Shown here: positions 2,162 to 13,616 of the stretch, piece after piece
Numbering within the stretch: the first letter of the stretch is position 1
How the letters are laid out: each line of letters begins with the position of its first letter
UHGV virus genome: UHGV-0269933
Length of the DNA stretch: 13,616 bases
Origin: a virus
Strand: one strand, 5' to 3'
The notes under the pieces: generated by a model
What the model saw: only the letters and a program-made list of their open reading frames with translations
Database searches by the model: none
Told to the model about the DNA's origin: nothing
Made by a program: the position numbers and the translations under genes

Positions 2162-2268
2162 CGCTCAAACTTCAATCGGCCGAGTTTTCGAGGCGTTAAA
2201 GAGTAGATATGGGAATATCACATATGTAAAAACCAGCCGCGCTCAAACTTCAATCGGCCGAGTTTTCG
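2162..2268. repeat. Pair of perfect 29-bp direct repeats (2162..2190, 2240..2268) with embedded 9-bp-stem hairpin in second copy
   Basis: cgctcaaacttcaatcggccgagttttcg occurs twice, 78 bp apart. Second copy extends into aatcggccg-agtttt-cggccgatt inverted repeat. Confidence 0.6.
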
Positions 2269-2307: not shown

Positions 2308-2694
2308 TCAGCCAATCAACGTGCTTTTCCCGCCGCGAGCCTGCTGGCGCACACGCTCGGCCTTAAGGCAAAGAGATGCTTCAGGCTTAGCAGGTACAGG
2401 AACATGGCAGGTTTCAGAGGTCCGGGGAATGTTATTGATCCATTCAATAACTTCACTCAGATACCACGCCTTGCGCCCCTCAGTGACCTGGACGCGTACT
2501 GGAAACTCACCTCGCGCTTCGAGATTCAGCAATGTACGGCGGCTCAGCGTGGTGAGTTCTATGACCTGATTCATATCAACCAGGCGCTCACTGACGTTCA
2601 TTTTGTCTGCCATCTCCAGCAGTTCACCCACCACTGGATCCGGATAGAGAGCATTGGCGGTGGCCATCAGGCTGTTATTTTTATCTTGCATCAT
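2308..2694 (-). CDS. AlpA/Vis-family HTH DNA-binding protein (second copy, with N- and C-terminal extensions)
   Basis: Core MNQVIELTTLSRRTLLNLEARGEFPVRVQVTEGRKAWYLSEVIEWIN fits the phage AlpA/excisionase-type HTH pattern. Start ATGATG at 2694/2691 with AAGGAG SD; the 144-aa track ORF start is an unsupported upstream extension. Confidence 0.55.
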   Translation of the reverse strand: MMQDKNNSLMATANALYPDPVVGELLEMADKMNVSERLVDMNQVIELTTLSRRTLLNLEARGEFPVRVQVTEGRKAWYLSEVIEWINNIPRTSETCHVPVPAKPEASLCLKAERVRQQARGGKSTLIG

Positions 2695-2701
2695 AATCTC
2701 C

Positions 2702-3043
2702 TTACACCAGTGCCAGTGGCTGAACAGAAATACCAGAGCCAACGAACGCTGCTACTTTTGCAGAAAGCGTGGTTACATCATCAGGCCAGTTAAGGGCATC
2801 AACATTCAGCACGCCAGCTTTGTAGACCTGAGCATGTGTCTGGCTTGCGGTATCAACAGCAAAGCAAGATACATAGACAGCCTGCCCGGCATGCGCCCCA
2901 TCCCAGACCACCAAAGCCCCATTGGTAGCATCCTGCATAAGTGGAGTCAGCGCGGGAATAACGCCCTTTGCTCCAGCGAAGATACCCAGAGTTGTCACCA
3001 GCGCTTCAGTACCGGCCGCCAGTTCAGTGTAATGCGTCGTCAT
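2702..3043 (-). CDS. Phage head decoration protein, lambda gpD-like
   Basis: 113 aa; ALTPLMQDATNGALVVWDG...VYKAG...AAFVGSGISV aligns with lambda gpD (AMTPLMLDTSSRKLVAWDG...FYKSG...TAFAGTAISIV). AAGGAG SD; translationally coupled to upstream capsid gene. Confidence 0.75.
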   Translation of the reverse strand: MTTHYTELAAGTEALVTTLGIFAGAKGVIPALTPLMQDATNGALVVWDGAHAGQAVYVSCFAVDTASQTHAQVYKAGVLNVDALNWPDDVTTLSAKVAAFVGSGISVQPLALV

Positions 3044-3052
3044 GATTACTCC

Positions 3053-4093
3053 TTAGGCCACGCGAACGGTGACAAAACGGTTGATACGGGCCGGGATAGG
3101 CTGCGGTGCGGAGTGGGTCTGAACGTACTCAATAGCTGGGTCGCCAGGAACAATGTAGTTCTTTGGCGCCAGCTCAGCTTTGGTAATACCCATACGGATG
3201 AGCTCTGGATCCTGAATTCCGCCGTAGGCCACAATGCCCTGCAGGGCGGTGTTTCCCAGCACCATCAAATCAGGATCGAGGAAGTGCTTTTCGGTGCCGT
3301 CTTCGTCGGTATAGCGACCGCTATAAACCACAATAGCCACATCGCCCATATAGCCTTTAAAGCTCACTGAATCGCCCAGGTCTTTAAGTGCTGTTTCAAG
3401 CTGTGCGTTGGAGCCGCGGCGCGTGTCGAGTACATCTTTAATCGCTTTGAAAGAACGATATTTTTTCCAGACGTTCCCGCCCATAATGATGATATTGGTT
3501 ACGCCTTCACTCAGCTCTGAATAGGTTTCAATATCGTCATTTGGATCAAACGTCGTTTTATCTTTACCTGACCAGGCAGCGCCACCAGCCTGAGTGATTA
3601 TATTCTGGGATTTGATATTCCAGTCCAGCTCATAACGCTCGATCCCTTCCCCCTCAATAATATTTTTCCCGGTAGTTACAGCCTGAACAGCCAGCCATTC
3701 AATACGCGCACGAATAGCAATAGACTGTTTGAGGATTGACTGTTTTACCTTGATATTGCGGGTATCAAGCGTGCTGTATTGATCAGGAGTAACACCAGCA
3801 GGACGAACAGCCAGTTTGTTAGGGTCAATGTTGCTCTTTGGTTTCATGTAGCCAGGACGGATAGACTTGGACTCATATCCCTCATCACGCGCCACCTTAC
3901 TACCCACCATAGGCGAACAGAACGCCGCGATTGGAATATTTGGGTCGTCGATAGTGTCCAGGATGATATCGCGCGTTTCAAAAGTAACTGCGCGGGTAAA
4001 GAATAAATCAGTGAACAGGGTTTTTAGTTGCTTCTGAATATCCTCAGCGCTAACAACCCGAACCAGCGCCGCAGGTGAATATAAATCTGGCAT
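3053..4093 (-). CDS. Major capsid protein, lambda gpE-like
   Basis: 346 aa, full-length collinear similarity to lambda gpE (341 aa): PGYMKPK..., ITQAGGAAWSGKDKTTFDPNDDIETY..., FRSFKAIKDVLDTRRGSNAQLETALKDLG...YMGDVAIVVYSG...MVLGNT...YGGIQD...GDPA... SD GAGG upstream of ATG. Confidence 0.9.
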   Translation of the reverse strand: MPDLYSPAALVRVVSAEDIQKQLKTLFTDLFFTRAVTFETRDIILDTIDDPNIPIAAFCSPMVGSKVARDEGYESKSIRPGYMKPKSNIDPNKLAVRPAGVTPDQYSTLDTRNIKVKQSILKQSIAIRARIEWLAVQAVTTGKNIIEGEGIERYELDWNIKSQNIITQAGGAAWSGKDKTTFDPNDDIETYSELSEGVTNIIIMGGNVWKKYRSFKAIKDVLDTRRGSNAQLETALKDLGDSVSFKGYMGDVAIVVYSGRYTDEDGTEKHFLDPDLMVLGNTALQGIVAYGGIQDPELIRMGITKAELAPKNYIVPGDPAIEYVQTHSAPQPIPARINRFVTVRVA

Positions 4094-4301
4094 ATATTAC
4101 CTCAGTAAAATAAATAGAGCGTTCATCACAAAAATAATGTTAACACTGACAAACACAGAATGATTGAATGCAATGATGTGCAATAGAGTGCAATAATGTA
4201 TAAAGTTAATTCACGGTGATATGGCCCGCTAAATATCTGTTAATGTCCTCACTGTTATTTCCTCCAAATAACATCGTTCGTTAAAAATCCATGTTTTCCC
4301 A

Positions 4302-4331
4302 AGCGGGTCTGGTTGCAGCCCGCTTTTTTTT
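4302..4331 (+). terminator. Rho-independent terminator on + strand (hairpin + T8) with no annotated + strand gene upstream
   Basis: agcgggtctggttgcagcccgct stem-loop followed by tttttttt. Lies in the leader region upstream of the capsid gene. Confidence 0.45.
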
Positions 4332-4366
4332 CGTCTTTCGCAAAATTATGGATCGGCAAAATGAGT

Positions 4367-4646
4367 GGTGAAAATCACCCTACCCACAGCTTTAAAATTA
4401 AAAAATATCCTTTTAAGTGTTCACCCGTTCACCTTTGCGAATTTCTTAATTAAATTCATGTAGTTATAGGGTGAATACTACTCTTTCAGGTATTCACTAG
4501 TGTTCACCCTACCCTTCACCCTTTAGGGCAAAAAACAATCAAAAGGTGAACAGGTGAATACTTGGTGAATACTTAATAAATAAGTGTCCACCCCTTAACA
4601 CTCTGTTATTAATAGAATTTTAAACAGGGTGAATACTGGTGAACAC
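4367..4646. repeat. Iteron cluster of P4 ori/crr type (TGTTCACC / GTATTCACC), ~12 copies in both orientations
   Basis: TGTTCACC at 4418, 4426, 4501; GGTGAACA/GGTGAATAC at 4470, 4545, 4553, 4564, 4628, 4638; variants at 4490, 4513, 4585; GGTGAAAATCACC palindrome at 4367. Matches the P4 type I iteron motif bound by alpha (recalled). Confidence 0.7.
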
Positions 4647-4659
4647 TTTATCTATAACT

Positions 4660-5361
4660 TTACTCTACCCCTTCATTCTCAGTAGTGATTGCACATGATG
4701 GCATCCAGTCGCCAGAATCATCATGCAGGGTTACGTTAGAGCGTATGCCATGTTTGGTTTTCCGCTTCTGGTATTCCTTCCCATACTCAACCATTGCGCC
4801 AGGCATATCTGTACCGAACCGCATCAGTGAGACAGGCTTACTCAGGCCATTGGCTCTCATGTATGCCAGATAGGCGTGATACAGGTACTTGCGCGGGCTG
4901 AATGGCACTATCTCGGCATTACCGATAAACATCCCGTCACACACTACCGACGCCATCAGGTAGCCGCAGAAGTCCACCAGCGAATCACCTTCACGCTTGA
5001 TCGCCAGAGCCTCCTCTGATTTCTGCTGCTCATACAATAACCGTCTGGCTTCGTCCTGGTCTGCAAAACGTGTAAGCAGATGGCGGATAACTACAGCCAG
5101 TTCCCCTTCTATTTTCTCTGCCAGCATCGAGTCTCGCTCGTTTTCTGGTACAACCTCCGAGAAATTGAAAATAACCCGGCGCCGCGAAATCCCCCCGCTA
5201 CGGTCGCTGAATGTCATAGCATTGTTGTTTACCGCCAGCACCACCGCCGGAATACGGGTTGAATATGGTGCTTTATGTTTAGGATCGATAGACACCTTGT
5301 CACCACCAGTTATGGCCTTAATACCTGCACCATCGCCAGCGTACCGGGTCATATCAGGCAT
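4660..5361 (-). CDS. P4 alpha-type primase/helicase C-terminal (iteron-binding) domain homolog, stand-alone/truncated
   Basis: 233 aa beginning near the SF3-helicase arginine-finger region (AVVLAVNNNAMTFSDRSGGISRRRVIFNF). No Walker A/B or primase domain. Located immediately upstream of the TGTTCACC iterons, as the alpha 3' end is in P4. Confidence 0.55.
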   Translation of the reverse strand: MPDMTRYAGDGAGIKAITGGDKVSIDPKHKAPYSTRIPAVVLAVNNNAMTFSDRSGGISRRRVIFNFSEVVPENERDSMLAEKIEGELAVVIRHLLTRFADQDEARRLLYEQQKSEEALAIKREGDSLVDFCGYLMASVVCDGMFIGNAEIVPFSPRKYLYHAYLAYMRANGLSKPVSLMRFGTDMPGAMVEYGKEYQKRKTKHGIRSNVTLHDDSGDWMPSCAITTENEGVE

Positions 5362-5427
5362 AATGATCGTAATGTTCCTTTATTTCATGAATCGTAATAG
5401 GCATAAATTCTCCTTGTTTGTCTAACC

Positions 5428-5620
5428 TGCCGCATTTAGTGCCGCGTTTAGCAATGCCGCACTTAGCGCCGCACCAGTTTTCTCAAAAAATTACGCAAAC
5501 CCAGTAATGACGTGGGTTTCAGTGAAATGCCGCACTTAGCGCGTGTATACAGGGACTAAGTGCGGCATTTGGTCATAAAACATACTAAATGCCGCACATG
5601 CCGCACTTACCGCCGCATTT
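5428..5620. repeat. Cluster of >=5 copies of ATGCCGCACTTAGCGC-like repeats including a 15-bp perfect inverted repeat
   Basis: Copies at ~5428, 5455, 5527, 5554 (inverted), 5588-5620. AAATGCCGCACTTAG-N16-CTAAGTGCGGCATTT at 5526..5571. Hairpin aaaccca/tgggttt at 5497..5519. Confidence 0.6.
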
Positions 5621-6983
5621 ACTCGACTGTTACCGGGTAAAGGTTCTCACCCTCGATGCGAATAATTTGCTCACTCTCCAGCTTGTCCAGCCAGCGCGGG
5701 AATGACTTTCTCACTTTGTCTGAGCCCAGCGTTGCACGCAGATCGTCTTTAATGACGGAGATAGTGCATGGCTCCCCCTTAGCTGTTCGGCTGCGAACTG
5801 CCTGCCATAGTGCATGATGGTTATCGCTAAGACGGGATACATGGGCCAGTTCAGGCTCAACCTCTTTAGCCTCTCTCGGCTGATCGTGCACAACCAGAGA
5901 GCAAACAAGCTCGCCATCTTCATCGGTGTAAAGCTCTGCCGTTCTCAGGTCATACGCTTTACGCTCTGGCTCCTCCGCGTCTTTCATCTTGGTACAGGTC
6001 AGAATAAGCGCTTTTCCATCCCCTTCACGCTTAACGTTAAATTCAGTATCAAGCGCAGCGCGGAAAGCACTGGAACCGCGAGCGCCTTTCCCTTCATCTT
6101 TGCCGGAGTGGTGAACTACCAGCACCGTTGCACCCGTTTTCTGTTTGATAACGTCACACCCTTCAATAAATGCCCCCATATCACGAGCATCGTTCTCGTC
6201 GTTACCGCCAAAACAACGGGCCAGCGTATCGATCACCACCATGCGAACCGGCACACCACATTCGGCTTCAATCTGCCTGGCAGCCAGAAGAACTTCTGTA
6301 ACCTCTGACTCACGCACCGGGAACACCGGACGATTGACCAGCCAGAGGTTGTCTGCCTGTATGCCATGCACCTGTTCCCATGCCCGTATACGCCGGGGAA
6401 CACCTACACCACCCTCGCCAACCACATACAGCACCGCGCCGGGAGTGACCTTCTTCCCCGCCCATGGCAGACCAGCAGCGATATGACAGGCCCACGACAC
6501 GGCAAGAAAACTCTTATACGAACCGCTGGGGCCGTAAATGCTGCACAGTGATTGCGCTGGCAGAAAGTGTTTAAGGATATAGTCCTGACGGATATCAAAG
6601 CCCTCAGAACCGCGAGAGAGAGGCAGCTTTGTCCTGAACTTTGCACCAGCATCAGGGAATACGCGGTGAATGCGCTGCACGTCAGACAGCATGGCATTCA
6701 TTTCCCCTTCGCCTATCTCTTCCACCAGCACAGAACGCCGCGCGGTAATCATATGTTTGCGGTCGGTATCGAGATACCCGGCATCACAAAGCTCCTCATA
6801 CGGCATTGCTGCTATCTGGTTGAGGCGAGCCACCAGCTTTCCGTAACGGGTAGTGGGGTCCTTATGCTGGTGGAGAGCTTTATCCAAATCGCTGCGACTG
6901 TACTGCTTGCCATGCGCCCACAGATACGAACAGGTGAACAAGGCATCCGATACGGTTTCTACAGCTGTCAGTTGTACCGTCAT
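5619..6983 (-). CDS. RepA-like replicative helicase / AAA_25 (RecA-fold) ATPase with N- and C-terminal accessory domains
   Basis: 454 aa; Walker A GPSGSYKS, Walker B-like VVIDTLARCF, HHSGKDEGKGARGSSA motif typical of RSF1010 RepA/DnaB-like helicases. ATGA overlap with upstream gene. Confidence 0.75.
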   Translation of the reverse strand: MTVQLTAVETVSDALFTCSYLWAHGKQYSRSDLDKALHQHKDPTTRYGKLVARLNQIAAMPYEELCDAGYLDTDRKHMITARRSVLVEEIGEGEMNAMLSDVQRIHRVFPDAGAKFRTKLPLSRGSEGFDIRQDYILKHFLPAQSLCSIYGPSGSYKSFLAVSWACHIAAGLPWAGKKVTPGAVLYVVGEGGVGVPRRIRAWEQVHGIQADNLWLVNRPVFPVRESEVTEVLLAARQIEAECGVPVRMVVIDTLARCFGGNDENDARDMGAFIEGCDVIKQKTGATVLVVHHSGKDEGKGARGSSAFRAALDTEFNVKREGDGKALILTCTKMKDAEEPERKAYDLRTAELYTDEDGELVCSLVVHDQPREAKEVEPELAHVSRLSDNHHALWQAVRSRTAKGEPCTISVIKDDLRATLGSDKVRKSFPRWLDKLESEQIIRIEGENLYPVTVE

Positions 6984-7348
6984 TTTGGAATGCCCCCGCT
7001 CATCTGGAATTTGCCGATCAGAGGATGGAACCAGTATGCAGAGCCATATTTGCGCTTAGCACTGCGCAGCACCAACCGTGCCGCTTCCCTGAACTTTTCA
7101 TCAGGTGCAACGAACCCGCCTGATTTCAGTTTAACCAGCATCACCCCTGTGTTTTTCGCCAGCTCCTCAGCCTTTTTGGTTGAGATACCGTATTCAGCAG
7201 CCAGTGTTGCTACTGGCGTCATACCCGGAGGGATTTCTCCGCCCTGACTATCGGTAAGTGATTTAACCTGAGCCTCAAGGCGCAAGACCTTCTCAACCAG
7301 CAGATCAACGCGGTTAGCCAGTTCGTTAAACTTCACATTGCTGATCAT
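6980..7348 (-). CDS. Hypothetical protein with N-terminal coiled coil and putative HTH
   Basis: 122 aa; TPVATLAAEYGISTKKAEELAK looks HTH-like. ATGA start/stop overlaps on both sides. Confidence 0.55.
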   Translation of the reverse strand: MISNVKFNELANRVDLLVEKVLRLEAQVKSLTDSQGGEIPPGMTPVATLAAEYGISTKKAEELAKNTGVMLVKLKSGGFVAPDEKFREAARLVLRSAKRKYGSAYWFHPLIGKFQMSGGIPK

Positions 7349-7572
7349 GGTCTTGCCTCCTGCGTTTCAGGGTCTGAAAAAGTAGAAATATCCAGTGAGT
7401 TTGCCAGTTCGTCAGAAAGGCGCTGAGCCAGGTGCGTTAAACTCATTACATGGATACGCTCCGCCTCCCCCTTGATAGTTGAAAGGTAAGCAGCACATGA
7501 CATGAGCGCAGCAACCTCTTGCGCCAGTAACAGCAAATCTTTTTTGCTGCGGTAGGTGTAAAAGTTATCCAT
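7345..7572 (-). CDS. Hypothetical small protein (75 aa)
   Basis: Start ATG at 7572 overlaps upstream stop (ATGGATAA). Track ORF 7345..7689 extends upstream without support. Confidence 0.5.
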   Translation of the reverse strand: MDNFYTYRSKKDLLLLAQEVAALMSCAAYLSTIKGEAERIHVMSLTHLAQRLSDELANSLDISTFSDPETQEARP

Positions 7573-7750
7573 TGAGCGCTCCCGTTTCATTCTGCTCCAC
7601 CATGCTTGCCGCAAGTTGATCCGATACTCGTCTGGCCAGACTGATAAGGTTTTCACGCTCAACCTGATCAACGTCGTACTCTTCGACAACCATCAACAAC
7701 GCAGCCAGTTCACAGGCTATTGACGCACTTTTATTGGTTAATTCACGCAT
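7565..7750 (-). CDS. Hypothetical small protein (61 aa)
   Basis: Start ATG at 7750 in ATGCGTGA overlap with upstream gene stop. Track ORF 7565..7912 is an upstream extension in another gene's sequence. Confidence 0.5.
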
Positions 7751-8012
7751 GGCGCACCTCCTGAATAGCTGCGCTATCGAACTCCCAGCCACGGCGGGTG
7801 GTGTAATCGAAAAACGCAACGCGACAAGGAGACTGGGCGCGGATTTTGGCAGCGAAAACCAAATCCCAGCCGGGGAATGCAGAGCGGGCTTTATCTTCCG
7901 TATCAGCATCAAAGCGGAGCACTACAGGTGTGCATTTTGGGGTGTGGTCTGGGGTTGCCAGGAATAACCATGTAAATTCCGGGCGAGTTTGGGTATGCTG
8001 TTGATCAGCCAT
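7743..8012 (-). CDS. Hypothetical protein (89 aa), first gene of replication operon
   Basis: Start ATG at 8012 with GGAG SD ([13 protein letters not shown]...). The 318-aa track ORF 7743..8699 upstream of this Met is low-complexity, Cys/Arg/Ser-rich non-coding translation. Confidence 0.55.
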
Positions 8013-8139
8013 AACTGTTACTCCGATTAACGGTTTGGTTAGACGCCCTGGTACTGCTCTAACAGTCCGGGGCGTTGCTTTTTGGTATGCACCTGCCATA
8101 CACTTGATTACCATTTCAAAGTAATCAGGTGTCAACCAA

Positions 8140-8319
8140 ATGTCAACCATAGAAATTAAAGCCAAAGGTAACAAGCAGATCGCATTACGCGTAGAACCAA
8201 ACCTAGAAGAAGGAATTAAACAGGCTCTGGCGCAAGATGGTGACGCTTCTGTATCAGCATGGATAAAGCGAATAATCCGCAAAGAGTTACAGCAGCGAGG
8301 CATTGAGCCGAAAAGCTGA
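8140..8319 (+). CDS. Small ribbon-helix-helix-like DNA-binding protein (59 aa), candidate island regulator/repressor; absent from ORF track
   Basis: ATG 8140 with AGGTG SD 9 nt upstream; stop TGA 8317..8319. KQIALRVEP strand plus two amphipathic helices fits Arc/MetJ/CopG topology. Divergent from the replication operon across a 127-bp region. Confidence 0.5.
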
Positions 8320-8499
8320 TACCCAAAATCTGGGTAACGGTCGAAACTACGGGAATTCTCCGGGGTATGCTGCATTGCAGTACACCCGGCACTCTGTTCC
8401 AGTTCTCCCCAGATTTGGGGAAATGGGGTATGCGCCAATGCCGTACACCCTAAACAGCCCAATTTCTGGGTAGTTTCACGTAACCGCGCCATTGACACA

Positions 8500-8519
8500 G
8501 TTCCTGTAATTACAGGAAC
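8500..8519. promoter_or_regulatory. 20-bp perfect palindrome GTTCCTGTAATTACAGGAAC adjacent to TTGACA; candidate operator
   Basis: Perfect dyad symmetry. TTGACA hexamer at 8492..8497 immediately upstream. Confidence 0.45.
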
Positions 8520-8588
8520 GCTCAGGCTTTGACCACCAGCATTAACCCTGGTATCCTGACTTTGCTTAATTTTTTGGTAGTGACATTG

Positions 8589-8616
8589 GCGGCCCGGCAT
8601 GGCCGCTTTTGTTTTA
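8589..8616 (+). terminator. Rho-independent terminator on + strand
   Basis: gcggcc-cggcat-ggccgc hairpin followed by ttttgtttta; ~270 nt downstream of the RHH gene stop. Confidence 0.55.
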
Positions 8617-8634
8617 TGTGACATTCCCCACCCC

Positions 8635-8844
8635 TCACGCTGCTTTGCTGCGGCTCTGCTGCCATGCTGTGACCTCAGAAAGAAGCCAACCAACGGCACG
8701 ACCTCCCAGCTTACGGCGGGCGGGAAAGCTCCCCTCTTTTTCCATCATGTATCGAGTGGTTCGACAAATACCGGTTAGCTGTCGGCACTCAGCCTCACGG
8801 ATAACTCTTTCTGCTGGCTGCTGGGATTGTTTAATATTGTTCAT
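8635..8844 (-). CDS. alpA: AlpA-family transcriptional regulator (prophage CP4-57-type)
   Basis: 69 aa from MNNIKQ; ...[43 protein letters not shown] is the AlpA HTH signature. The longer 81-aa reading would translate through a hairpin and has no SD. Confidence 0.75.
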
Positions 8845-11213: not shown

Positions 11214-11238
11214 TTCAGGTTAGCTAAATGCTTGATTA

Positions 11239-11276
11239 AAAAGGCGCTACTCGGCATGGGGAAGCGCCTTTTTTAT
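11239..11276 (+). terminator. attR-type direct repeat, the fis Rho-independent terminator
   Basis: Identical to 26..63. GC-rich hairpin followed by a T6 run, upstream of yhdJ. Confidence 0.8.
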
Positions 11277-11298
11277 AGGTGTCACAAAGGGAGTGACC

Positions 11299-12183
11299 AT
11301 GAGAACAGGATGTGAACCGACCCGGTTTGGTAATGAAGCTAAGACCATTATTCACGGTGATGCCCTTGCCGAACTTAAAAAGCTACCTACTGAAAGCGTC
11401 GATCTGATCTTTGCCGACCCACCGTATAACATCGGTAAAAATTTTGATGGTCTGATCGAAGCCTGGAAAGAAGATCTGTTTATCGACTGGCTGTTTGAAG
11501 TGATTGCAGAGTGCCACCGCGTTCTGAAAAAGCAGGGCAGCATGTACATTATGAACAGTACGGAAAACATGCCCTTTATCGATCTCCAGTGCCGCAAGCT
11601 TTTTACCATCAAAAGTCGCATCGTCTGGTCATATGACAGTTCTGGAGTACAGGCGAAAAAACACTACGGCTCCATGTACGAACCCATCCTGATGATGGTG
11701 AAAGACGCAAAGAACTACACATTCAACGGTGATGCTATTCTGGTAGAAGCCAAAACCGGATCGCAGCGCGCGTTGATCGATTATCGCAAAAATCCTCCAC
11801 AGCCATACAATCATCAAAAAGTACCGGGTAACGTCTGGAATTTTCCGCGCGTGCGTTATTTAATGGATGAATATGAGAACCACCCGACGCAAAAACCGGA
11901 AGCCTTACTGAAACGCATTATTCTCGCCTCTTCCAACCCAGGCGATATCGTTCTCGACCCGTTTGCCGGTAGCTTTACTACCGGTGCCGTAGCCATCGCC
12001 AGCGGACGAAAATTCATTGGTATTGAGATCAACAGCGAGTACATCAAAATGGGGCTTCGACGGCTGGATGTCGCGTCGCATTACTCCGCGGAAGAACTGG
12101 CGAAAGTGAAAAAAAGAAAGACGGGCAACCGGTCAAAACGATGCCGGGTTAGCGAAGTTGACCCCGATCTCATTGCAAAGTAA
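11299..12183 (+). CDS. yhdJ: DNA adenine (N6) methyltransferase YhdJ
   Basis: 294 aa from MRTGCEPTRFGNEAK...; DPPY motif (FADPPYNIG); C-terminal SAM-binding motif DPFAGSFTTG. SD AAAGGGAG. Track start at GTG 11293 is less likely. Confidence 0.9.
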   Translation: MRTGCEPTRFGNEAKTIIHGDALAELKKLPTESVDLIFADPPYNIGKNFDGLIEAWKEDLFIDWLFEVIAECHRVLKKQGSMYIMNSTENMPFIDLQCRKLFTIKSRIVWSYDSSGVQAKKHYGSMYEPILMMVKDAKNYTFNGDAILVEAKTGSQRALIDYRKNPPQPYNHQKVPGNVWNFPRVRYLMDEYENHPTQKPEALLKRIILASSNPGDIVLDPFAGSFTTGAVAIASGRKFIGIEINSEYIKMGLRRLDVASHYSAEELAKVKKRKTGNRSKRCRVSEVDPDLIAK

Positions 12184-12266
12184 AGGAAGTGTAAGCCTGG
12201 TTTTCAGATTATTCATTTCGTGTATATTTCCTGCCAGACTTGGTTAAACATGCACAGGCTCAGGTA

Positions 12267-12446
12267 ATGATTCGCAAGTATTGGTGGCTCGTCGTTTTCG
12301 CTGTCTTCGTTTTTCTGTTTGATACTTTACTGATGCAGTGGATTGAACTGCTGGCAACAGAAACAGACAAATGCCGTAATATGAACTCAGTTAATCCACT
12401 AAAACTGGTTAACTGTGACGAACTGAATTTTCAGGACAGAATGTGA
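12267..12446 (+). CDS. yhdU: Small membrane protein YhdU
   Basis: 59 aa from MIRKYWWLVVFAVFVFLF... with one hydrophobic helix; conserved position between yhdJ and envR. Confidence 0.75.
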   Translation: MIRKYWWLVVFAVFVFLFDTLLMQWIELLATETDKCRNMNSVNPLKLVNCDELNFQDRM

Positions 12447-12448
12447 AT

Positions 12449-13111
12449 TTACATGACACTTAATTCATTCGTTTGATGAATTAATTTCGTTATGTTTTCA
12501 TCTGGCATGAACATTCTTAATACGTTATCGACCAGCGCGGGTGCTTGTTTATAAAGATCATAACCCGCCATATTCATTAACCAGTTTTGAACAATTCCGC
12601 TGAAGGCACCATCAATAATAATCATCACAACATCTAAATCGAGGTTATTTGCTACACAACCTTGTTGCTGACACGCCTGCAATACTTCGCGGAGAGTCTG
12701 CGGATTAAAGCCCATCTTTTCGCGTATCACTCCCTCGGCCAGCATCTCATCATTAAATTCACATTTGTGATATAAGATTTTCAGCAACGCCTGCTGGCGG
12801 GGAATTTTGGCAATATATTGCAAGCCGACAATCAATTTTTCACGCAATTGTTGAAACGGGTCATGCTCTAATCCAGCCGTCAAGTGTTCCTGGATTAACT
12901 CCCGCAATGAAGGCTGTTGCAACCACATCTCATTAAACAGTTGAGTCTTGTTTTCGAAGTGCCAGTAGATAGCGCCACGCGTAACGTTAGCAGCGTCGGC
13001 AATGTCGTTGAGCGTCGTCTTGCTTACGCCATGCTGCGCAAACTGGGCGATGGCAGTTTCAATCAGTTCTTGCCGGGTCTTCAGAGCTTCGGCTTTGGTT
13101 CTTTTTGCCAT
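12449..13111 (-). CDS. envR: TetR-family repressor EnvR (AcrS) of acrEF
   Basis: 220 aa, N-terminal TetR HTH (TRQELIETAIAQFAQHGVSKTTLNDIADAANVTRGAIYWHF). Divergent from acrE. Confidence 0.9.
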   Translation of the reverse strand: MAKRTKAEALKTRQELIETAIAQFAQHGVSKTTLNDIADAANVTRGAIYWHFENKTQLFNEMWLQQPSLRELIQEHLTAGLEHDPFQQLREKLIVGLQYIAKIPRQQALLKILYHKCEFNDEMLAEGVIREKMGFNPQTLREVLQACQQQGCVANNLDLDVVMIIIDGAFSGIVQNWLMNMAGYDLYKQAPALVDNVLRMFMPDENITKLIHQTNELSVM

Positions 13112-13509
13112 GATTAATTATTCAGGAAATAAATATATTCGACACAGGGTGAGAAAATAGCGAAGGTTAATCTATCATCTAATGTGTATTTATACGAGAG
13201 GGTAACATTAAGTTGCTATAAATCGTCAAATAAATAATATATATTATTTACCTAAAATACATTCGCCACATGAATATATATTTCAATTTACGAGGTTTTA
13301 ATTCTACCTCTTTCAACCCGCGTCAAAATAAAACAGTAGAATATTAATCTTTTTTTGTGTTTATGTGCCTTGAGACGCCAGTATTCATAACTATTCCTTA
13401 CATCGACGAATGATAATTTGTAGGATAGCAAACTGTATTTTTCTTTCTGCGAGTTAACGCGTTGCCTTTCTGGGTAAATAACGCGCTTTTGGTTTTTTGA
13501 GGAATAGTA

Positions 13510-13616
13510 ATGACGAAACATGCCAGGTTTTTCCTCCTGCCCTCCTTTATTCTGATCTCCGCGGCTTTAATCGCCGGTTGTAACGATAAGGGAGAAGAGA
13601 AAGCTCACGTCGGTGA
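13510..13616 (+). CDS. acrE: Multidrug efflux periplasmic adaptor lipoprotein AcrE, 5' partial (runs off window)
   Basis: MTKHARFFLLPSFILISAALIAGCNDKGEEKAHVG: lipoprotein signal peptide with lipobox LIAGC. SD GAGGA. Confidence 0.85.
   Translation, partial: MTKHARFFLLPSFILISAALIAGCNDKGEEKAHVG

Follow-up and report, generated by a model that had tools for sequence, protein, structure and literature searches.

A probable 3′ remnant of a primase-helicase gene at the junction between two phage-satellite replication modules

The window considered here, a stretch of 13,616 nucleotides of the UHGV virus genome UHGV-0269933, contains an open reading frame of 233 codons that probably represents what remains of the 3′ part of a pri-rep gene where illegitimate recombination joined two replication modules of PICI-type satellites (a probability of roughly three in four, judged from sequence comparison). 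One parent, of the RepA type, would have contributed integrase, alpA, repA, the repA iterons and the first 14 codons, including Shine-Dalgarno (SD) sequence and start codon, of an 80-codon gene, and the other parent the last 233 codons of pri-rep together with an iteron origin. The crossover between them would have taken place at an imperfect microhomology of 8-9 nt inside the part of pri-rep that encodes Walker B. The positions of all features are collected in Table 1.

Table 1. Features of the replication region and the late zone (positions in the window).
Feature	Position	Strand	Basis and remarks
repA-type helicase gene (454 aa, AAA_25), presumed working initiator	6983..5619	-	Pfam AAA_25 6e-43
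oriA, RepA-type iterons: five ATGCCGCACTTAG-like repeats, one of them inverted, between the repA stop and the leader	5425..5617		repeat search
AAGGAG Shine-Dalgarno sequence, 5 nt upstream of the leader ATG	5415..5410	-	read from sequence; same in H1
Leader ORF MPITIHEIKEHYDHYA, 16 codons and TGA	5404..5354	-	ATG 5404..5402, TGA 5356..5354
Recombination junction, imperfect 8-9 nt microhomology GATYATYA common to both parents	5361..5368		blastn and sequence comparison
Main ORF, ATG start, 233 codons (233 aa)	5361..4660	-	ORF list
Identity of main ORF: 3′ third of a P4-alpha-type primase-helicase (pri-rep) gene, equivalent to P4 alpha 548-771	4660..5361	-	Pfam, TIGR01613, tblastn
Helicase stub: SF3 motif C AVVLAVNNN (codons 39-47) and arginine finger R60-R62 in SRRR	5176..5247	-	alignment to P4 alpha and the full-length H2 protein
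Winged-helix origin-binding domain, intact, codons 125-221	4699..4989	-	phmmer to PDB 1KA8 and Pfam Pox_D5
oriB, primase-type iterons: about 13 copies of TGTTCACC/TATTCACC in both orientations, with AT-rich spacers	4367..4650		repeat families D3, D4, I1-I13
Far end of the primase-derived patch, the usual replication-module end in all relatives	4385..4390		homology limits
Late zone: capsid E	3053-4093
Late zone: D-like decoration protein	2702-3043

The main ORF shares homology with the final 233 codons of full-length genes, and its residues 1-223 align with residues 548-771 of P4 alpha at 56.7% identity (tblastn). An earlier note on this DNA had recognized an alpha-type C-terminal, origin-binding domain in the ORF, and database comparison bears this out: residues 125-221 match PDB 1KA8, the origin-binding domain of P4 alpha, over its residues 2-99 of 100 (phmmer, E=6.5e-28), and residues 124-215 match Pox_D5 (Pfam, 6.5e-12, 46 bits, cut-off 21.4). 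P4 alpha has the domain order primase, SF3 helicase and winged helix, with paired arginines at the arginine-finger position (PMC2777425). Just the last part of the SF3 NTPase core is matched by the ORF, at positions 68-114 of the 114 of DUF5906 and by PPV_E1_C, below threshold (Pfam), and ORF residues 7-68 match residues 577-638 of the helicase 7OLA. TIGR01613, which covers the C-terminal region of P4-family primases, is matched over positions 141-299 of 304 with 53.4 bits, under its cut-off of 108.7 (NCBIfam). As had been noticed from the letters, primase and Walker A are lacking: neither a primase nor a D5_N domain was found in the 233-aa ORF with all Pfam and NCBIfam models, the Walker A pattern G-x4-GK[ST] is absent from it, so that its SF3 NTPase core is incomplete, and the last residues of Walker B are all that remains of that motif, at codons 1-3. 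What is missing corresponds to the N-terminal 547 residues of P4 alpha (zinc/Toprim primase, D5_N and Walker A); the P-loop GPGGSGKS (P4 alpha 501-508, present also in the protein of the E. coli island H2) and the primase domain map upstream of the junction.

The initiator methionine of the ORF is a conserved internal methionine of Walker B, where P4 has SLIRLPD (L548) and its relatives have SLIIMPD; it lies in the context ...SLIIMPDMTRY... in the 584-aa H2 protein, and the full-length protein context of the main ATG reads ...VVGYSLIIMPDMTRYAGDG.... Alignment to P4 alpha therefore puts the boundary at residue 548, within Walker B, and not near the arginine finger, where the start had been placed before; the ORF begins about 60 residues ahead of SRRR, with motif C still inside. 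By these alignments, the ORF is a fragment of a member of the P4 alpha/Pri-Rep family and no family member itself, and its predicted product cannot be a primase or a helicase.

The short ORF ahead of it, with an AAGGAG SD sequence and a stop codon overlapping the main ATG, was found on the minus strand as previously described. The two frames share the 8 nt ATGCCTGA at 5361..5354, which hold both the main ATG (5361..5359) and the TGA of the leader, and there is no separate SD sequence upstream of the main ATG. By itself, a 16-codon ORF is unremarkable. The tight overlap had been taken as a sign of coupled translation by design, an interpretation that is not sustained by a three-way alignment, in which the SD sequence, the ATG and the first 14 codons of the leader correspond to the beginning of an 80-codon gene located after repA and its ori in the E. 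coli island H1, where this gene is intact (its 80-aa product begins MPITIHEIKEHYDYYGLHD...). The leader is thus not a chance ORF, because its SD sequence and ATG belong to a real neighboring gene in a relative. It is absent from the full-length relatives and conserved only among copies descended from the same junction, and on this alignment it is the stump of a neighboring gene and no dedicated leader. Since the frames of the stump and of pri-rep differ, the TGA falls 5 nt past the conserved internal methionine, giving the ATGCCTGA overlap, a product of the junction. CCT, the codon responsible for the overlap, is present in 1 of 27 full-length alleles, 25 of which have CCG, and could represent either a selected change or inheritance from an unsampled donor.

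Both parental types can be recognized on the two sides of this point. The window from 5361 to 7761 is 95% identical (blastn) to the RepA-type island H1 (L001) of E. coli strain HZ13, which has the order int, DUF6387, alpA, repA, iteron region and 80-codon hypothetical gene. The segment 4390-5368 matches full-length primase genes from more than 10 genera at their 3′ end and ori (79-86% identity, blastn), and is about 80% identical to E. coli genes annotated as "DNA primase family protein", such as the 584-aa one of H2 (L002). The H1-type and primase-type homologies overlap by 8 nt, where the recipient reads ACGATTATTACGGG, donor-like alleles CTGATCATCATGCCGGAT and the window ACGATCATTATGCCTGAT. 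Homology to primase-type islands stops at 5367/5368 on one side, and on the other side homology to more than 10 different islands of this type stops at 4382-4402; the primase-derived patch is therefore about 980 bp long, of which 702 nt are coding and the rest is the origin. Similarity to the capsid-E module of another island (L093) sets in at 4339. A megablast of 4300-7400 found the whole arrangement in none of 5,426 complete E. coli genomes, and these genomes contain no closer full-length parent (best fragment identity 81%); a junction pattern with degenerate positions had no match in viral contigs. The limits of homology strongly support the view that the locus is an illegitimate-recombination scar with identifiable donor and recipient. 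The event may have been a deletion between tandem satellites at the fis-yhdJ att site, as we infer, or an exchange between co-replicating satellites.

To compare the locus with its relatives, 80 species-representative genome loci encoding a relative were retrieved. A full-length primase-helicase of 570-814 aa occupies the homologous position in about 70 of them, with an open frame that reaches 355-614 codons further upstream, and the few short loci among the 80 have breakpoints that are scattered and differ from one another. At the amino acid level, the product of the main ORF is 91-96% identical to the C-terminal 233 residues of full-length proteins encoded by Kluyvera, Pluralibacter, Raoultella and Klebsiella and by the induced satellite vB_KppS-Ant. 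These findings bear on two claims of the earlier note. Its view that the ORF is no dead fragment does not agree with a full-length gene in about 70 of 80 related loci and with a clear recombination scar at the locus itself. Its description as a "split or remnant initiator" holds for the remnant, given the full-length relatives and the scar, and fails for the split, given that RepA and oriA occur without the fragment.

Databases contain many entries of approximately 230-260 aa, and a recurrent family of stand-alone C-terminal-domain genes was considered as a candidate. It was rejected because each of the five short homologues examined goes back to an unrelated frameshift or deletion, with breakpoints that differ: two are frameshifted full-length genes (P0002 and P0010), one is a deletion that places the fragment beside a truncated acrE (P0016), one is another chromosomal scar (P0050), and one lies next to sid, delta and psu in a decayed P4-like element (P0052). 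None of these five Pox_D5-only homologues has a RepA neighbor. The similar lengths of such entries arise because gene callers pick the conserved Walker B methionine as the first available start; annotation pipelines name the fragments "primase-like DNA-binding domain-containing protein", and their lengths reflect the internal methionine and no conserved stand-alone gene.

The junction is not confined to the window. The exact 233-aa protein is encoded on two other assemblies (ENA and Logan) that are 99.99-100% identical to the window, and a 28-mer spanning the junction, which includes the CCT codon and the overlap, was used as a probe for further copies. It identified four metagenome contigs (L100-L103) in which the block is 92-96% identical and the flanks differ, including int, DUF6387 and the downstream modules, so that no fewer than four diverged island backgrounds share the junction. 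The full 233-aa frame is preserved in L101 (identical to L102) and in L103; in L100 a second rearrangement has cut it to 133 aa, with loss of the winged helix and oriB. According to an exact look-up, the three intact alleles are present on 26, 20 and 1-2 contigs, roughly 50 in all. A private, recent deletion in one strain was rejected on the basis of the four diverged metagenome contigs and the approximately 50 contigs that carry the alleles. Every junction-bearing copy has kept the SD sequence, the ATG and the tight overlap of stop and start; for CCT and the overlap, this conservation is partly a consequence of the search, because the 28-mer contained both. In our reading, the block of repA, oriA, stump, remnant and oriB would have moved into several island backgrounds after the junction had formed.

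Variation among these copies calls for a careful interpretation. The junction-bearing ORF alleles differ by 54-96 nt, with 51-82 synonymous and 3-9 non-synonymous codons (omega 0.014-0.03), and even within the tract of low divergence there are 13 synonymous changes versus 2 non-synonymous ones (P=3e-7 under neutrality). Such a synonymous excess is the pattern that would be expected from purifying selection on a working protein. Long-term purifying selection read straight from dN/dS (omega of about 0.02) was, however, not taken at face value, since divergence is mosaic and segments of the alleles lie close to full-length alleles. For about 900 nt upstream of the junction and the first 50 nt past it there are 0-3 differences per 50 nt; beyond these 50 nt there are about 11 differences per 50 nt over 200-300 nt, and then divergence is low again. 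The dS of the ORF (0.4-0.9) is far above that of the adjacent repA (0.08-0.17). Over codons 1-126, the L101 allele differs at 11 of 378 nt from a full-length Kluyvera georgiana gene and at 74 of 378 nt from the window allele; the best-matching full-length allele switches from segment to segment, the segments being 96-99% identical to full-length alleles, and nearly all amino acid variants of the junction-bearing alleles also occur in full-length ones. Among private changes, the ratio of non-synonymous to synonymous ones is 4:6 in L100 and 0:11 in the L101 and L103 alleles. The simplest reading is a single, fairly recent junction (flank divergence of about 2%), after which the remnant would have swapped segments with the pool of full-length genes by homologous recombination. 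Exchange with full-length alleles imports variation that has already been filtered by selection, and the synonymous pattern would be mainly due to such imported variation. Counting against a mere remnant are the intact ORF in three distinct junction-bearing alleles, the synonymous excess and the presence on about 50 contigs.

These observations are relevant to an alternative which accepts that the locus originated as a scar and proposes that the 233-aa protein is made by re-initiation and kept by selection as an iteron-binding inhibitor. The protein would occupy TGTTCACC-type iterons or poison full-length pri-rep/alpha hexamers, and would thereby block competing primase-type satellites or P4-like elements, or modulate the use of oriB. 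The earlier note had offered, along similar lines, that the binding domain on its own might titrate iterons or interfere with a P4-type competitor. This alternative fits with the intact winged helix and the cognate-type iterons next to it, with the retention of SD sequence, ATG and tight overlap in every junction-bearing copy, with an ORF that is open in three of four distinct alleles and has an overwhelming synonymous excess, with the relaxed pattern of the L100 allele that has lost the winged helix (4:6, compared to 0:11 in L101 and L103), with the rarity of the overlap-creating CCT among full-length alleles and with alleles on about 50 contigs. However, recombination with full-length alleles can account for the synonymous excess, a divergence of only about 2% on the junction side has perhaps left little time for decay, and the conservation of CCT and overlap stems in part from the search probe. 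In addition, the L100 contig illustrates that loss of winged helix and oriB can occur, and the arrangement is absent from the 5,426 complete E. coli genomes. We consider it unlikely that selection has retained the protein in this way.

Under the preferred reading, in which the ORF is a recombination remnant, the 233-aa protein might be expressed by re-initiation after the stump, and any such expression would be accidental in origin. Re-initiating ribosomes would produce an incomplete SF3 core, with neither P-loop nor primase, joined to an intact winged helix; this protein could attach to the iterons of the TGTTCACC type (4367-4650) but would be unable to unwind or prime DNA.

The organization of the replication region argues against a functional partnership between the fragment and RepA. 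A RepA-type helicase gene lies upstream, as the earlier note had stated, and its H1 counterpart is annotated as 'helicase RepA family protein' in RefSeq. The iterons between repA and the leader comprise five matches to ATGCCGCACTTAG-like repeats versus 0.33 expected, and this oriA region is 95% identical in H1, which is without the alpha fragment; RepA and these iterons (5425-5617) presumably constitute the working replication system of the island. The second array is of a different type: 8 of the 11 exact matches to TRTTCACC in the window fall within 4418-4645 (228 bp), with 0.92 expected for the whole window, and this octamer is the P4 "ori type 1 repeat" of ori and crr (annotation in X51522). 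Its position immediately 3′ of an initiator gene is that of P4 crr and of the PICI ori, and in Gram-negative PICIs the ori has been located directly 3′ of the initiator gene (PMC6092414). Scans of the region revealed no promoters above shuffle expectation at 4050-5700 (promoter and terminator scan), and an Rfam scan of the whole window gave 0 matches at the gathering score. The island thus appears to carry a RepA-type origin with its initiator, plus a primase-type origin with just the binding domain of its initiator.

It had been suggested that the two proteins form a modular initiator, with RepA as the helicase and the 233-aa protein as the origin-recognition component acting jointly at one origin. 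The genes are adjacent and co-oriented, and a DNA-binding domain in the short ORF would complement the helicase core of RepA. Nevertheless, RepA occurs with its own ATGCCGCACTTAG array and without the alpha fragment in H1 (at 95% identity), and the diverged RepA alleles of four other islands (L090-L093) likewise lack the fragment; the winged helix derives from a different initiator family, which is found as full-length genes without RepA and whose iterons form a second, separate array. Moreover, the arrangement arose only once, at a microhomology junction, and the binding domain was lost in one lineage. The split initiator was rejected on these grounds and is, in our view, very improbable. An assembly or sequencing artefact, in which a chimeric contig joins two islands, is hardly credible, since the junction, even though it sits at a short repeat-like microhomology of two related mobile elements, a typical spot for mis-assembly, recurs in two other assemblies (99.99-100%) and in four further metagenome contigs with different flanks (92-96%), and database records place the exact proteins on about 50 contigs.

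The element that contains the junction can be assigned to a known type of satellite with some precision. Its ends are marked by 55-nt att repeats (9-63 and 11222-11276) that span about 11.2 kb, and the flank at 11283-13616 is 99.7% identical to yhdJ-yhdU-acrS-acrE of E. coli. Besides capsid E and the decoration protein, the late zone contains a second AlpA; satellites with such a late zone often lie inside the capsid gene of a lambdoid prophage. The region of the island for a Nu1-type small terminase has been lost to an IS66 fragment. With int, alpA, a replication gene plus iteron ori, a unidirectional layout, a late zone, att sites and a size within 10-20 kb, its predicted gene content is that of a Gram-negative PICI or HE-PICI-type satellite. 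The capsid-E satellite family has already been described, as HE-PICIs or "11capE" (Mageeney et al. 2023, PMC10111431). Within this family, the same position is occupied by a RepA helicase in L090-L093, with RepA alleles that have diverged to 70-76% nucleotide identity, and by a full primase with SSB in L094-L097. Exchange of replication modules is evident from this, and the window contains what reads as one such exchange between islands, its scar still legible.

Comparison with known systems may help to place the remnant. It resembles P4 alpha in that it corresponds to residues 548-771 (56.7%), has the C-terminal domain represented by 1KA8 and is followed directly on its 3′ side by the type-1 octamer, as at P4 crr; unlike P4, the element is a PICI-type island with a RepA initiator and has no sid, psu or delta. 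The Pri-Rep proteins of PICIs and cf-PICIs (D5_N, DUF5906 and Pox_D5) are 91-96% identical to it in amino acid sequence and match in ori position and iteron organization (PMC6092414), whereas the ORF is cut off at Walker B and joined, in a different frame, to what is left of another gene ahead of it. The fis-site "11capE" PICIs share int, alpA, a replication zone with ori, capsid E, decoration protein, second AlpA, yhdJ and the 55-nt att with the island, but their members normally have either a full primase (with SSB) or RepA, whereas the island combines RepA with a primase remnant (PMC10111431). This particular chimeric module was not found in the literature searched, and gene remnants at mosaic junctions, here within an established satellite family, are an already known kind of feature.

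Truncated initiators that act as repressors include E2C and E8^E2 of papillomaviruses and the short pi proteins of plasmid R6K. By analogy, the remnant also presents the DNA-binding domain of an initiator without the catalytic part, beside its own binding sites. However, those proteins are programmed by internal starts or splicing and have demonstrated functions, whereas the remnant would be a recombination accident with a putative product. If it had nevertheless been co-opted, it would represent an evolved dominant-negative initiator, a weapon against primase-type satellites and P4-like elements dependent on the same helper or, alternatively, a means to control the second origin, oriB. Expression of the binding domain could interfere with P4/Pri-Rep replicons and would then amount to a new kind of satellite competition, which the evidence does not favor. 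The locus is better viewed as an ordinary and well-resolved case of how phage satellites evolve as mosaics by swapping replication modules, with two iteron origins now present in the island.

The leader, a 16-codon ORF overlapping the start of the remnant ORF (the 233-codon 3′ third of a P4-alpha-type primase-helicase gene), ends at a TGA that arises from CCT, the second codon of the remnant ORF (window position 5357). This codon specifies Pro and is a synonymous variant of CCG, which occupies the position in 25 of the 27 full-length alleles and with which the stump frame would extend approximately 12 codons further. The CCT either came from an uncommon donor variant or was acquired after the junction was formed.

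In L100 (OIER01000723.1), one of the metagenome contigs with the same junction, a second rearrangement lies approximately 380 nt past the junction and shortens the remnant ORF to 133 aa, with unrelated sequence, beginning with a terminator hairpin, in place of the winged-helix part and oriB (the primase-type iteron array). The L100 remnant also carries four private non-synonymous changes, including N66K and A118S, which fall at sites where full-length proteins show no variation or almost none.

Similar C-terminal alpha fragments are found in independent deletion scars. The scar in L007-L009, which encodes P0016, belongs to a cf-PICI in which the region from int to mid-primase is deleted and a truncated acrE now adjoins. 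The scar in L106-L107, which encodes P0052, lies in a P4-like element in Serratia, where the alpha fragment overlaps a sid-like gene and adjoins a reverse-transcriptase cargo gene.

The island is inserted at the E. coli fis-yhdJ locus, and a terminator-like hairpin is present inside its att repeat. Features of the island are summarized in the table below.

Features of the island in the window
Feature	Position	Strand	Remark
Direct repeat, 55 nt, 91% identical	9-63 and 11222-11276		att sites, island ends
Abi_C-domain protein, 257 aa	171-944	plus	att-distal island end
IS66-family transposase C-terminal fragment, 129 aa	1269-1658 and 1660-2300 region	minus (1269-1658)
Perfect 29-nt direct repeat CGCTCAAACTTCAATCGGCCGAGTTTTCG	2162-2190 and 2240-2268		spacing 78 nt
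Capsid E, D-like decoration protein and second AlpA module	2308-4093	minus	compare loci L090-L097
GC-rich hairpin followed by T8	4303-4335	plus	between oriB and capsid gene
318-codon ORF (putative gene), GTG start	7743-8699	minus

The 318-codon ORF, a putative gene, covers a region that in H1, a related RepA-type E. coli island, is occupied by several small genes, among them an icd-like gene and, in the opposite orientation, YlcI/YnfO. In L003 and L004 gene callers give a 293-aa product, for which no Pfam match was found. The Abi_C gene is probably abortive-infection or defence cargo, and its DNA is 86% identical to the cargo at the equivalent position in L094 and L097.

Satellites possessing the capsid E module are approximately 10 kb in size, and both the island and L090-L097 fit the published helper-embedded PICIs designated '11capE' (PMC10111431). 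The second AlpA gene has the 29-nt repeat pair just downstream. The GC-rich hairpin, whose reading as a terminator is opposed to the direction of every neighbouring gene, is kept in L093, where homology extends to 4339. At the site of the IS66 fragment, relatives L090-L095 and L097 carry a Nu1-type small terminase gene, and the counterpart in L103, another contig sharing the junction, is likewise a Nu1-type small terminase (a 202-aa ORF). The packaging specificity gene is probably missing from the island in the window through loss, and this island may be defective.
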